From an uncultured Alphaproteobacteria bacterium (GTDB lineage: Bacteria > Pseudomonadota > Alphaproteobacteria > RF32 > CAG-239), in assembly GCA_944391345.1 (NCBI GenBank), contig CALXTE010000008.1, positions 2,374 to 66,373 of the forward strand: a stretch of 64,000 nucleotides of DNA, in the 5' to 3' direction. The notes below the pieces were generated by a model. That model had not been told where the DNA came from and searched no databases. It was given only the letters and a program-made list of their open reading frames with translations. The translations under genes and the position numbers were made by a program. Of this stretch, positions 5,483 to 13,887 are shown piece after piece (position 1 is the first letter of the stretch; each line of letters opens with the position of its first letter).

Positions 5483-5509
5483 AAAACAAAGCCTGCCAAT
5501 AAGGCAGGC
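5483..5509 (-). terminator. Leader terminator/attenuator upstream of the HTH gene (copy 1)
   Basis: Minus strand GCCTGCC-TTATT-GGCAGGC-TTTGTTTT. Confidence 0.7.
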
Positions 5510-5569
5510 GGAGCTAAACAACTGTCGTAGTACAGTCACCGTTATTCAATATATTAGCGGTACTCCGCC
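5507..5569 (-). ncRNA. C4-antisense-like RNA (copy 1)
   Basis: Three-way junction: GGCGGAG/CTCCGCC closing stem, ACCG..CGGT hairpin, CTGT..ACAG hairpin. Loop TACTACGA and junction GTTGTTTAG are complementary to the upstream target. Confidence 0.7.
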
Positions 5570-5590
5570 CAATATAAGCGGAGGATTTAA

Positions 5591-5616
5591 TACCACGAAG
5601 GTGTTGTTTAGACACC
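5591..5616 (-). promoter_or_regulatory. c4-a1b1-like target hairpin (copy 1)
   Basis: GGTGT-CTAAACA-ACACC followed by TCGTGGTA, complementary to the RNA at 5507-5569. Confidence 0.65.
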
Positions 5617-5770
5617 GTCGGCTACCTCTAACCGGCAAGGAAATTATAAATTGCTTAAGTATAGTTTGCAAGGAAAAGTTTGTATAGCCGCATATCTTCT
5701 CAATTTTCTGATATTAGCATTTATTTAAATCTTTATTGTTAAACTTCGTGTTATAACTGCGGAGTTTGTT

Positions 5771-6445
5771 ATGATTTATATTGTGCTTGGTTTTTTATGG
5801 GGGCTATGTATTCCTTATTTATCACGTCGGTTTGGCAAGTTTATGCCGGCGTCGCCCGCTTTTGCGCTTTATAGTCTGTTTATGCTGCTGAAAAAAGTTT
5901 CTGCTCCGCAAAAGAACAAAGTCTATCTGTCTTTGCGGCGCACTTTGCGTTATCGGGCTTTTATGTATGGGCTGTTTTGTGCCGCAGTGACTTTTGCTTT
6001 GCTCTATGTTTATGGAGCGGAACATTTGCTATGGTATTTGGCTTTTGCTTGGTCAGCGCTCTTTTTATTTGAAATTGATGTGCGTTGGTTCGTTTTGCCG
6101 GATATTATCACTTTTCCTTTGCTGATTTTGGGATTTGGTTGTGCTTATTTTGCAGGTGTTCCCGTAACGGTAGAACAAGCCTTTTTCGGCGCGGTGGTCG
6201 GTTTTGTTTTGCCGGTGATTGCTTCTTTGCCTTTTGCCGCCAAATATCCTGATGCGCTGGGAGGCGGTGATGTTAAATTCTTATCCGTTGTCGGAGCTTG
6301 GCTCGGCGTGGAAAAAATGCTTTACACTATTGTGCTTTCGTGTATTTTATTTACAATATATGCAATCATTAAACGCCAGCGAGAAGGGGCTTATGGACCG
6401 GCGATTGCTTTGGCGGCTCTGATTATGCTGCTTTGGCGTTTTTAA
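5771..6445 (+). CDS. Prepilin peptidase (A24 family)
   Basis: Polytopic membrane protein with EIDVRWFVLPD, LGGGDVK and YGPAI motifs. Confidence 0.9.
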   Translation: MIYIVLGFLWGLCIPYLSRRFGKFMPASPAFALYSLFMLLKKVSAPQKNKVYLSLRRTLRYRAFMYGLFCAAVTFALLYVYGAEHLLWYLAFAWSALFLFEIDVRWFVLPDIITFPLLILGFGCAYFAGVPVTVEQAFFGAVVGFVLPVIASLPFAAKYPDALGGGDVKFLSVVGAWLGVEKMLYTIVLSCILFTIYAIIKRQREGAYGPAIALAALIMLLWRF

Positions 6446-6473
6446 GAACCATTTGAGGAAGGGAGCTTTACTA

Positions 6474-7208
6474 ATGTTGCTCGTTGAAAAAATTAAAAAC
6501 AGTCTGAAAAAAGACAAACGTCGCTTGAAAAAGCTGGTTACCGGCACGAATTTTGACATGATGATTATGTCGCTTATTCTTTTTAATGCCGTTATTCTCG
6601 GGCTTTTGACCAGTGAAAAATTGCAGGTTTACAGTCAGCTTTTGTTCTTGTTGGACAGATTGTGTTTGGCGATTTTTATTGCTGAAATGTTTATGAAAAT
6701 TTTTGCCTTCGGAAAAGATTTTTTCAAATCCGGTTGGAATGTGTTTGATTTGATTGTGGTGCTGGTCTCTGCTATTTCTGTTACCGGATATTTTGTGGCT
6801 TTGCGAACATTTCGTCTTTTCTTGATGTTGCGCTATTTTAATCGGTTTAATCGCTTAAAGCAACTATTGAGTGTTTTTGTCGGATTGTTGCCGAGCTTTG
6901 GGGCAATGTTATTGCTGTTTTTGGTTTTCTTTTATGTATCGGCAATTGTGGCGGTTAGCCTCTTTGGGCAGAAGTTTATTGATTTTGCAACGCTTGAAAA
7001 TTCGTTGTTTACGCTCTTGCAGCTCTTTACGCTTGATGGCTGGGTTGATGAAATTGCGCGGCCGTTGATGACGGTTTATCCTTCTTCTTGGATATTCTTT
7101 GTGGTCTTTTTGTTTGTTTCGTTTTTGCTGGTGGTCAGCTTTTTGGTCAGTGCCGTGGCTGAGCTTATGCGAAAAACAACGGGGCTGCTGCCTAAAATTA
7201 AGTTTTAG
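6474..7208 (+). CDS. Voltage-gated cation channel (BacNav/Cav-like ion transporter)
   Basis: Six TM helices, GWNVFD, S4 LRTFRLFLMLRY, pore LQLFTLDGWVD. Confidence 0.9.
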   Translation: MLLVEKIKNSLKKDKRRLKKLVTGTNFDMMIMSLILFNAVILGLLTSEKLQVYSQLLFLLDRLCLAIFIAEMFMKIFAFGKDFFKSGWNVFDLIVVLVSAISVTGYFVALRTFRLFLMLRYFNRFNRLKQLLSVFVGLLPSFGAMLLLFLVFFYVSAIVAVSLFGQKFIDFATLENSLFTLLQLFTLDGWVDEIARPLMTVYPSSWIFFVVFLFVSFLLVVSFLVSAVAELMRKTTGLLPKIKF

Positions 7209-7272
7209 CTCATTTTGCTTCCGCCGATTATGCCGTCGGCGGTTTTTTTTTGCAAAAAAAATTTATTTTGCT

Positions 7273-7301
7273 CTTGATTTGTGAGGTTTTGTTACCTAAG
7301 T
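7273..7301 (+). promoter_or_regulatory. Putative RpoH promoter of groESL
   Basis: CTTG-N18-CCTAAGT, same spacing as the site at htpG. Confidence 0.5.
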
Positions 7302-7348
7302 ATGCAGGTAGAACTATCAGTGTATTGTAATTAAGGAGTTGATTGAAT

Positions 7349-7639
7349 ATGAAAATTACACCTTTACATGACCGCGTATTGATTAAGCGCATTGAAGCTA
7401 ATACTAAAACCGCCGGCGGAATTATTATTCCAGACACCGCCAAAGAAAAACCGAGCGAAGGTTTGGTTGAGGCTGTCGGAAACGGTTTTCGCTCCGAGGA
7501 CGGAAAAATTATTCCGATGAGTGTTAAAGTCGGTGACAAAGTTTTGTTTGCAAAGTGGTCAGGAACGGAAGTTAAAGTTGACGGTGAAGAACGTCTTATC
7601 GTTAAAGAATCGGATATTCTTGCCGTTGTTAATGACTAA
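7349..7639 (+). CDS. groES: Co-chaperonin GroES
   Basis: [23 protein letters not shown]. Confidence 0.99.
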
Positions 7640-7678
7640 GGTTTTGTTTTGTTCAATCTATCATAAGGAAATTTAAGT

Positions 7679-13142: not shown

Positions 13143-13267
13143 AAAAACTCGTATAATGGTCGATTAGGGTGTTGTCTGCGGGACAAAAGTGTCCTCACGT
13201 ACTGTTTGTGTACGCTCCGGTACTTTTGCCCTTGACGCCTACTACTCGACTCATTCTCCGAGTTTTT
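13143..13267. repeat. RPE-like palindromic element, subtype A
   Basis: Body near-identical to 4647-4772, with aaaaactcg/cgagttttt termini; abuts the lepA stop. Confidence 0.88.
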
Positions 13268-13269
13268 AC

Positions 13270-13308
13270 AAAGTTTGTTCTGTGGTCGACTAATACAGAA
13301 TTGTCGGA
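13270..13308. repeat. Truncated RPE-like element, subtype C left arm
   Basis: ggtcgactaatacagaattgtcgga is identical to 4920-4944. Confidence 0.75.
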
Positions 13309-13319
13309 CAGGAAAATAT

Positions 13320-13562
13320 TTAAGAAGCTTTGATGAGTTCAAATTTTAATTTATAATTATAAATAGCTGCGATAACAGCCACGCGTCTTAATCCAAAAGC
13401 TCGGCCTTGTTCGACATTTTTAATTCGACGACGTGATAATCCGCTTATTTTTGAAACATCATCAATACTTAACTGATGTTCTTGTCGGAGTTCATATAAC
13501 TTCTGTCCGACTTCAGCTCGGTTGTCTTCTAAATAAATGATTTGTTCTTTTTTTATTCCCAT
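13320..13562 (-). CDS. XRE-family helix-turn-helix protein (intact copy)
   Basis: VGQKLYELRQEHQLSIDDVSKISGLSRRRIKNVEQG; AAGGAG RBS. Confidence 0.88.
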   Translation of the reverse strand: MGIKKEQIIYLEDNRAEVGQKLYELRQEHQLSIDDVSKISGLSRRRIKNVEQGRAFGLRRVAVIAAIYNYKLKFELIKAS

Positions 13563-13606
13563 TTTCAGCTCCTTTTTTTATTTTGTGATAAAAACAAAGC
13601 CTGCCA

Positions 13607-13730
13607 TAAATTGTGTATAATGGTCGATTAGGGTGTTGTCTGCGGGTTTCGAAAAATTCACGTACTGTTGTGTACGCTAAAATTTTTCTCATCCTTGACG
13701 CCTACTGCTCGACTCATTCTCCCCAATTTC
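13607..13730. repeat. Chimeric RPE-like element (subtype A outer arms, subtype B inner arms) in the leader terminator loop
   Basis: Splits gcctgcc / aataaggcaggc, which are contiguous at 5491-5509. Confidence 0.88.
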
Positions 13731-13738
13731 AATAAGGC

Positions 13739-13803
13739 AGGCGGAGCTCAAAAACTGTCACTATACAGTCACCGTTATTCAATATATTAGCGGTACTCCG
13801 CCT
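13739..13803 (-). ncRNA. C4-antisense-like RNA (copy 2)
   Basis: AGGCGGAG/CTCCGCCT stem, same scaffold as copy 1; loop TATAGTGA and junction GTTTTTGAG. Confidence 0.7.
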
Positions 13804-13824
13804 AATACAAGCGGAGGATTTATT

Positions 13825-13850
13825 TATAGTGAAGGTGTTTTTGAGACACC
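13825..13850 (-). promoter_or_regulatory. c4-a1b1-like target hairpin (copy 2)
   Basis: GGTGT-CTCAAAA-ACACC followed by TCACTATA. Confidence 0.65.
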
Positions 13851-13887
13851 GTCGGTTACCTCTAACCAACAGCGCCAGTATAAAAAA

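Follow-up and report, generated by a model that had tools for sequence, protein, structure and literature searches.

We analysed a 64,000-nucleotide (nt) stretch of the genome of an uncultured alphaproteobacterium (GTDB lineage RF32; CAG-239; contig CALXTE010000008.1, positions 2,374 to 66,373; hereafter, the window) and found on its minus strand two copies of a multi-copy leader RNA. The leader holds a fixed set of parts, two alternative folds, private complementary address segments, and an overlap between one of these folds and an intrinsic terminator that precedes the downstream gene. We propose that each leader is a self-contained cassette encoding a bistable RNA of the c4/c4-a1b1 design known from phage P1, in which termination is the default and an RNA carrying the same address likely triggers read-through. 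We put the probability of this reading at about 0.55.

The order of parts is the same in every leader. A promoter is followed by a first hairpin (H0), the segment a1 in the loop of a GGTG..CACC hairpin, the segment b1, and the segment X, which a short loop separates from X'. Hairpins H2 and H3 come next, with b' in the loop of H3, and then a' and X2, the latter running into the terminator stem ahead of the gene. The leader is ~155 nt long, and the end bases of X2 are the first bases of the terminator stem. An initial annotation of the window had described a target hairpin, a three-way junction, a terminator, and an XRE-type helix-turn-helix (HTH) gene at two places on the minus strand. This parts list was right, both elements lie where it placed them, and all four of the pairings it quoted are present. 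The parts of the two copies are given below, with scores from Rfam models or from our covariance model R1, which was built from the seven copies in this genome. A second model, R2, was built from 69 copies, and the E-values of both models are rough.

5643..5671, minus strand: copy 1 sigma-70-type promoter (TTGCAA, 17 nt, TATAAT), 10/12 matches in the promoter scan
5483..5636, minus strand: copy 1 leader RNA, from the H0 hairpin to the terminator T-run, 177.5 bits with R1
5603..5611, minus strand: copy 1 a1, CTAAACAAC, in the loop of the GGTG..CACC hairpin
5591..5598, minus strand: copy 1 b1, TCGTGGTA, cognate duplex −11.1 kcal/mol
5578..5584, minus strand: copy 1 X, CCTCCGC, the 5' alternative partner of X'
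5563..5569, minus strand: copy 1 X', GGCGGAG, partner of X (closed form) or of X2 (closing stem of the three-way junction)
5525..5532, minus strand: copy 1 b', TACTACGA, in the loop of hairpin H3 (ACTGT..ACAGT)
5514..5522, minus strand: copy 1 a', GTTGTTTAG, in the 3' junction strand
5507..5513, minus strand: copy 1 X2, CTCCGCC, whose last three bases double as the bottom of the terminator stem
5483..5509, minus strand: copy 1 intrinsic terminator, GCCTGCC-TTATT-GGCAGGC and then TTTGTTTT, 7 pairs (6 G-C) and a T-run
13877..13906, minus strand: copy 2 promoter (TTGACA, 18 nt, TATACT), 11/12 matches in the promoter scan
13730..13870, minus strand: copy 2 leader RNA, H0 through to the terminator's 5' arm and the beginning of its loop, 33.7 bits with the sRNA-Xcc1 model over 13731-13803
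13845-13837, minus strand: copy 2 a1
13832-13825, minus strand: copy 2 b1
13817-13811, minus strand: copy 2 X
13802-13796, minus strand: copy 2 X'
13765-13758, minus strand: copy 2 b'
13755-13747, minus strand: copy 2 a'
13746-13740, minus strand: copy 2 X2
13590..13605, minus strand: copy 2 terminator 3' arm (GGCAGGC) and T-run, joined to the rest by an R1 match that bridges an insertion (L004:1362-1641)

Two exclusive folds and private addresses

In copy 1, a1 (CTAAACAAC, 5611-5603) pairs with a' (GTTGTTTAG, 5522-5514), and b1 (TCGTGGTA, 5598-5591) pairs with b' (TACTACGA, 5532-5525), the latter with one G-U pair. The corresponding pairings in copy 2 join CTCAAAAAC (13845-13837) with GTTTTTGAG (13755-13747) and TCACTATA (13832-13825) with TATAGTGA (13765-13758). 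Copy 2 spans 13870 to 13590 and is split by a 116-nt miniature inverted-repeat transposable element (MITE) at 13729-13614, within the terminator loop. The scaffolds of the two copies are 91% identical in one part (5497-5589 vs. 13730-13822) and 81% identical in another (5597-5650 vs. 13831-13884). The position of the copy 1 promoter is conserved before the other copies in the genome. At copy 2, the tolB terminator hairpin (window 13889-13916) encloses the −35 hexamer of the promoter, and the same arrangement is seen at L005 (L, G, and C numbers are our handles for loci, genomes, and contigs).

For the copy 1 leader, the folding energy is −59.7 kcal/mol (z = −4.78), and none of 200 shuffled sequences was as stable. 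Its minimum-energy fold holds a1:a', b1:b', a hairpin of CTCCGC with GCGGAG (X:X'), and the terminator. When seven leaders were folded, the minimum-energy fold was this closed form with a full terminator, at −57 to −64 kcal/mol. With a1 and b1 masked, the X:X' and X':X2 forms came to lie ~1–3 kcal/mol apart, and when X':X2 was forced, the terminator lost the bottom pairs adjoining its T-run.

Both folds are conserved across relatives. Alignment A5 comprises 69 copies from 68 loci in 22 genomes and, like its predecessor A4, was fitted to a model holding H0, a1:a', X:X', H2, H3, and the terminator. Among these 69 copies, the closed form (H0, a1:a', X:X', H2, and terminator) was 96.7% paired, with 25 of 32 pairs changed on both sides. 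The junction form (H0, the a1 hairpin, X':X2, H2, and H3) was 98.1% paired, with changes on both sides in 17 of 25 pairs. In either case, none of 500 shuffles scored as high. Taken singly, H0 was 97.3% paired, the a1 hairpin 99.3%, and a1:a' 99.0%, with 6/9 of the a1:a' pairs compensatory. Moreover, one column of X' covaries both with X (GC 41, AU 17, CG 3) and with X2 (CG 43, UA 15), indicating that two mutually exclusive folds are conserved. This bears out the earlier suggestion that CTCCGC is an alternative partner of GCGGAG, since X' covaries with X and X2 alike.

The second earlier observation, that the scaffold is kept as both pairing segments change together, holds in the 7 copies of this genome as well as in the 69 of the family. 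In the aligned own-genome copies, changes on both sides occurred in 7/7 b1:b' pairs, 2/9 a1:a' pairs, and one H2 pair. The covariation score was reached by 0/500 shuffles, and 97.3% of positions were paired vs. 28–39% in slid controls. Diversity is concentrated in the b segments: across the 21 copy pairs, the scaffold was 91.6% identical vs. 48.3% for b, and all 14 b columns were variable vs. 22 of 104 scaffold columns. These seven copies hold two a alleles and six b' loops, and the cognate b partner was the strongest in six of them.

The wider set of 69 copies contains 12 a' alleles and 54 b' loops. Cognate b1:b' duplexes averaged −7.7 kcal/mol vs. −2.7 kcal/mol for non-cognate ones, and in the first 32 copies, the cognate mean was reached by 0/2000 permutations. 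Weak addresses were found in 8 copies for b and 3 for a, several of them visibly decayed or chimeric. The a and b alleles also reassort, as L003 and L017 share b and differ in a, and so do L004 and L016. Non-cognate pairs that match in both a and b were rare within a genome: 0/42 in our own, 1/272 in G011, 1/210 in G008 (15 of its 23 copies examined), and 0/20 in G022 (5 of ~20 copies examined). The variable b address together with the a alleles probably keeps paralogous leaders of one cell from cross-reacting.

We also looked for targets of a' and b' beyond the leader's own a1 and b1. Against its own downstream 98 nt, a' scored −4.64 kcal/mol vs. −4.66 kcal/mol for non-cognate stretches, so there was no a2-type site as in phage P1. 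The corresponding values for b' were −7.58 and −7.09 kcal/mol (16/2000 permutations), a small difference that could be explained by relatedness of the copies. A search of the own genome for orphan a1 hairpins returned exactly seven, all in leaders. Exact composite a1..b1 sites were likewise found in leaders only, and the matches with one mismatch per segment were scattered A-rich strings.

Distribution, downstream genes, and surroundings

The initial annotation knew of two copies, both real, but the genome (1.63 Mb in 44 contigs) holds seven in total, and the covariation holds when all of them are collected. The genomes that we surveyed are samples, and copies from relatives are not independent of one another. 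R1 detected the leader in 22 of the 24 further genomes sampled from this family and in none of 16 genomes that each represent a different family of the order or class. With R2, it was found in 75 of 119 same-family genomes, covering 16 of 19 genera (our own counted), and not in the one genome of a second family. R2 gave 543 matches in total, with 1–23 copies per genome, and numerous matches lay at contig ends. Leaders also occur in tandem with no gene between them, three at G083:C7:26398-27042 and two at L060 (G002:C9:47373-47773), which resembles the sRNA-Xcc1 arrays reported in Xylella. Our own genome carries a further three-way-junction RNA at L012 (G000:C4:33454-33538, minus strand; sRNA-Xcc1, 27.8 bits), which shows no sequence relationship to the leaders and is not followed by an HTH gene.

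In a search of RNA libraries, five runs shared 0.04–0.16 of words with the query. Four of these yielded short contigs from relatives that were 85–99% alike over leader and MITE, from which RNA ends and strand were unreadable. One such contig continues into promoter-like sequence and may therefore be DNA.

The genes behind the two window copies and the MITE copies around them are as follows.

13320..13562, minus strand: copy 2 XRE HTH gene, 80 amino acids (aa), intact, HTH_3 29.3 bits (cut-off 23)
5081..5452, minus strand: copy 1 XRE HTH gene, broken by a MITE after codon 5, with a stop 39 codons in (by eye)
5319..5434, minus strand: MITE copy within the copy 1 gene, 116 nt
13614..13729, minus strand: MITE copy within the copy 2 terminator loop, 116 nt
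13140..13272, minus strand: MITE copy just 3' of the copy 2 gene
4645..4777, minus strand: MITE copy 3' of the copy 1 cassette

The twin HTH genes described earlier are thus one intact gene at copy 2 and one MITE-interrupted gene at copy 1. No open reading frame (ORF) of at least 40 aa is listed on the minus strand at the copy 1 gene, and its remnant at 5081-5312 is 88% identical to 13319-13550. The MITE is ~115–130 nt long with the ends AAATTG..CAATTT, and it has 21 blastn matches in the genome, 11 of them of at least 100 nt. Its two insertion points here recur in other genomes: the A-run at HTH codon 5 is hit in L001, L015, and L042, and the terminator loop in L004, L061, L062, and, at L060, the second of the two leaders.

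The neighbours of both copies are core genes, encoding HtpG, a prepilin peptidase, an ion channel, GroEL, IF-1, a GNAT acetyltransferase, LepA, TolB, and RuvX. There were no phage genes among the neighbours of either copy and no prophage nearby, in agreement with the core-genome setting first described. Within our own genome, all seven leaders precede an HTH gene or its remnant (HTH_3 or HTH_31 matches). The Cro/CI-type HTH proteins downstream of leaders in our own genus gave weak matches to phage regulator families, the best being phrog_8 (E = 1.9e-5). At one of the seven (L007; G000:C2, ~87930), the HTH gene has an extra A in the A-run behind the start codon, and the longest ORF begins 97 nt downstream and is only 59 aa long; the copy may be frameshifted, or the run may be a site of slippage.

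Beyond our own genome, the leader is not confined to HTH genes. An ORF of at least 45 aa begins within 160 nt downstream of 57 of the 69 leaders, and the remaining 12 lack one because of contig ends, MITE-broken genes, tandem leaders, or decay of the copy. Twenty-seven of the 57 ORFs fall into three groups by their N-termini (by eye), and the group representatives match HTH_3 or HTH_31; L081, which lies outside these groups, also matches HTH_3. A further 12 appear by eye to encode Cys-rich secreted lectin-like proteins, with one representative matching Lcl_C at 25.2 bits, below the cut-off. The others include four proteins of 49–56 aa and one pilin-like protein (by eye). The Pfam scan behind these assignments took in 19 representatives, 7 of which match HTH families and 11 of which match nothing. 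With lectin-like, pilin-like, and small unknown genes behind it in sister genomes, the leader is a general cassette rather than an HTH-specific device. In our own genome, Cys-rich lectin-like genes also form a large family, with 65 tblastn matches (for example at C2:77749-78204, C14:3949-4425, and C18:26591-29874), and some of them stand in tandem arrays. No leader was found upstream of these genes at the six best loci examined, but related lectin-like genes in G007, G008, and G014 do carry one.

Comparison with phage and Bartonella RNAs

In layout, the leaders resemble the immI region of phages P1 and P7 (c4-a1b1; Rfam clan CL00128). The P1 record annotates a1 at 48255-48261, b1 at 48269-48276, and c4 at 48343-48419, along with a2, b2, and icd. 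There, as in our leaders, two adjacent hairpins carry a1 in the second loop and b1 behind it. The P1 C4 RNA likewise has one closing stem and two hairpins; b' occupies the loop of the second hairpin and a' the 3' strand of the junction, and specificity is set jointly by two short pairings. The C4-type topology is present in the junction form of the leader, and the c4-a1b1-type hairpin pair is present upstream. C4 is matured by RNase P from a longer precursor. P1 has the targets a2 and b2 downstream at the icd ribosome-binding site, whereas the leader family lacks such sites; the leaders have an intrinsic terminator directly 3', and the 5' strand of their junction has a conserved alternative partner in X; and they are chromosomal and multi-copy, without phage genes. 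The resemblance to C4 proposed earlier therefore stands for the layout and fails for Rfam matches and for downstream a2/b2 sites.

On the leaders, the only Rfam family with a notable signal was sRNA-Xcc1 (RF02221), at 30–33.7 bits on four of the seven own copies, below its 53-bit gathering cut-off. (The other cut-offs are 45 bits for C4, RF01695; 46.7 bits for c4-a1b1, RF03163; and 50 bits for IsrK. At gathering thresholds, an Rfam scan of the window returned three tRNAs only.) The three-way-junction topology of sRNA-Xcc1 is identical to that of the leader, but neither the model nor the accessible descriptions of this family contain a target module upstream, an X element, or a terminator switch. 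Those descriptions have it acting in trans as an sRNA that belongs to integron cassettes and islands, and sRNA-Xcc1 and C4-type RNAs have been reported in phages and genomic islands (10.1101/2020.03.17.996009; PMC12189769). On the Bartonella grahamii plasmid pBGR3, we observed an sRNA-Xcc1-type RNA (L086, 25880-26100, minus strand; 49.5 bits) with CAAAACA and CCTAAAG upstream, which complement its junction strand and hairpin loop (by eye, in a single sequence). Still further upstream there is a promoter-like TTGACA, and the RNA is followed by a hypothetical gene of 222 aa. Members of the sRNA-Xcc1 family may thus share the a1/b1 design.

A functional parallel is offered by IsrK of the Salmonella prophage Gifsy-1 (RF01394), in which a short terminated isoform is described as activating its own read-through isoform in trans, both arising from one promoter (PMC4825925). 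Unlike the leaders, IsrK is reported to control translation of a prophage antirepressor operon (PMC4825925). The IsrK model had no match in scans of the two copy regions. It did match the P1 a1/b1 region together with the hairpin behind it (L084 1394-1475) at 35.1 bits, and IsrK lies outside the C4 clan. To our knowledge, no address diversity has been described for IsrK. In the satellite phage P4, the CI RNA (seqA/seqB/seqC) is processed from a leader, pairs with complementary sites of that leader, and governs premature termination. This phage immunity system exists in a single copy, and its targets lie on either side, upstream and downstream.

A further counterpart is the Brt family of Bartonella, nine abundant RNAs of 194–203 nt, each 10–18 nt upstream of a poorly transcribed XRE HTH gene (PMC5387305). 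They were matched by BLAST only in Bartonella and described as genus-specific, with a role as riboswitch-like or trans-acting sRNA (Tu et al. 2016, PMC5387305; review PMC8070961). Levels of badA rose with an antisense RNA directed at Brt1 and likewise with over-expression of Trp1 (PMC5387305), and deletion of the brt1 3' stem-loop raised trp1 transcription (reviewed in PMC8070961). Brt1 has been proposed to be a riboswitch-like attenuator, and the same review reports that a downstream gfp reporter responded to heme concentration. Our Brt set consisted of relatives of the pBGR3 HTH gene with their upstream DNA; 10 Bartonella loci were used, and an eleventh was mostly masked.

Like our leaders, Brt is an alphaproteobacterial RNA of ~150–200 nt that occurs in many copies and is followed directly by a small XRE HTH gene. 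All 10 loci have the same parts in the same order: a first hairpin, a1 in the loop of a GGG..CCC hairpin, b1, an X:X' hairpin, H2, H3 with b' in its loop, a', and X2. The 10 loci hold eight a' and seven b' variants. Cognate a duplexes scored −7.5 kcal/mol vs. −3.0 kcal/mol for non-cognate ones, and b duplexes scored −10.2 vs. −3.0 kcal/mol, with 0/5000 permutations as low. When nine of the loci were given to RNAalifold unguided, it returned the long-range a and b pairs, X:X', and H2, with 19 of 58 pairs compensatory. By contrast with the leaders, the Brt X2 is complementary to the ribosome-binding region and there is no T-run (by eye), so the expression platform would differ. The HTH proteins of the two families are 29% identical over 62 residues. 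The Brt literature, in its accessible parts, does not mention c4, a1/b1, or address loops, and we found no paper joining Bartonella and c4 antisense RNA in a search that left most subscription journals outside.

A possible switching mechanism and its alternatives

The two folds suggest how the leader may control its gene. A sigma-70 promoter would drive the leader of ~155 nt, which ends in an intrinsic terminator before the gene. In the closed form, X:X' is paired and a' and b' are docked on their own a1 and b1, leaving X2 free so that the full terminator forms. In the open form, X':X2 closes the three-way junction, whose hairpin loop displays b' and whose 3' strand displays a', and takes the 1–3 bottom terminator pairs beside the T-run. 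Under this model, the closed form would mean termination and the junction form read-through. The default co-transcriptional outcome would then be the closed form, yielding a short, self-masked RNA with the gene off. Occupation of a1/b1 or a'/b' would remove ~10–14 kcal/mol of docking energy, and without docking, the folds would be near-equal in energy, allowing read-through into the gene. The likeliest agent would be a same-address RNA acting on nascent transcripts, either the short terminated isoform or a processed junction RNA of the same locus. Such action in trans has a precedent in IsrK.

Several findings weigh against this proposal. The pair counts from A4 and A5 lean towards helices that were already in the alignment model, though X':X2 and b1:b' lie outside it, and those two results are therefore not built in. 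One own copy, L002, joins the b1 of L006 with the b' of L007, and since this and some other copies with mismatched addresses have intact genes, exact matching is not indispensable. No trans target was found in the genome beyond the leaders' own a1/b1, so that an intramolecular role would explain the complementarity. Because the closed form is favoured over the alternatives by 10–14 kcal/mol, a trans RNA may invade it slowly, and because X2 overlaps the terminator by only 1–3 nt, the terminator might still work in the junction form. The Rfam scans, which the initial annotation had put forward as a check, were silent: C4 (RF01695) had no match at E ≤ 10 in the whole genome, and both C4 and c4-a1b1 (RF03163) were absent from E ≤ 10 scans of both copy regions. 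The positive control, phage P1 (AF234172), scored 68.8 bits with C4 and 51 bits with c4-a1b1. Our own models were insignificant on P1 and on Brt, where R1 and R2 reached 12–13 bits against pBGR3 and nine Bartonella loci (best E ~0.07, in the expected register). Together with the silence of the Rfam models, this leaves common descent unproven.

Some of the same observations would fit a purely cis-acting attenuator, in which a1:a' and b1:b' are only structural locks on a terminator-permissive fold that a protein, a small ligand, or a physical signal flips, and their diversity has no signalling role. We regard this as possible, if a good deal less probable than switching by a same-address RNA. 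Genome-wide, a' and b' have perfect partners in their own a1 and b1 alone, the minimum-energy fold is self-docked, copies with a mismatched b retain intact genes, Brt1 has been proposed to be a riboswitch-like attenuator, and a gfp reporter downstream of it is reported to respond to heme (PMC8070961). However, neutral drift leaves unexplained why 14/14 b columns vary on a scaffold that is 91.6% identical. Nor does a cis lock account for the reassortment of a and b between copies (L003/L017 and L004/L016) or for the near-absence of cross-matches within a genome. Moreover, b' and a1 lie in loops in the junction form, which is the RNA-RNA recognition geometry of P1 c4.

The surroundings of the leader raise the idea of a mobile, portable promoter cassette that spread with the MITE, its RNA structure serving mobility or transcript stability. 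A MITE copy lies within 700 nt of six of the seven own cassettes, the sequence upstream of several promoters resembles a MITE end (by eye), and the many matches at contig ends are repeat-like. Still, we consider this idea improbable, as it explains neither the two exclusive covarying folds nor the complementary diversity of the addresses nor the overlap with the terminator (in Brt, the complementarity to the ribosome-binding site, by eye).

Least probable of all is that the leaders are domesticated immunity modules of a prophage or satellite (of the P1 c4 or P4 CI kind), acting as repressor RNAs or as sensors of incoming phage RNA, because the layout identical to P1 immI, the small Cro/CI-type HTH genes with their weak phage regulator matches (phrog_8), and the sRNA-Xcc1/C4-type RNAs reported in phages and islands (10.1101/2020.03.17.996009; PMC12189769) are set against a lack of phage genes around either copy, hundreds of copies spread over 16 of the 19 genera sampled, leaders in sister genomes that precede lectin-like, pilin-like, or small unknown genes, and the absence of operator-like a2/b2 sites downstream or of matching sites elsewhere in the genome (phage collections were not searched). 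Domesticated immunity and the sensing of phage RNA had both been suggested in the initial annotation, and within the same scope, nothing points to either. Its observation is confirmed overall, and its interpretation is partly supported.

Returning to switching by a same-address RNA, a stronger version would make each leader both sender and receiver, with the exposed a'/b' of a few open transcripts capturing the a1/b1 of nascent transcripts with the same address, keeping these out of the closed form and so maintaining a self-propagating private on/off state for each gene. In this version, the family would provide hundreds of RNA address codes, all orthogonal to one another, as a library made by nature. 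We think this version unlikely.

By layout, our comparison joins Rfam families that are filed apart, namely C4/c4-a1b1, sRNA-Xcc1, and IsrK. The two-site recognition design of phage P1 c4 appears to be used as a general, multi-copy gene-control leader across a family of uncultured gut Alphaproteobacteria. This would be a rare natural case of many orthogonal RNA-RNA pairs on one scaffold, of interest for RNA-based regulation and for the design of synthetic riboregulators. Brt RNAs regulate the Trp regulators of the BadA adhesin and have been treated as riboswitch-like with an unknown trigger; they gain from this comparison a concrete, testable layout of self-docking addresses and an X/X'/X2 toggle. 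If the self-propagating version were true, the leaders would constitute a heritable RNA-conformation switch, akin to phase variation, for regulators and hypervariable surface lectins and, by way of Brt, for adhesin control in Bartonella.

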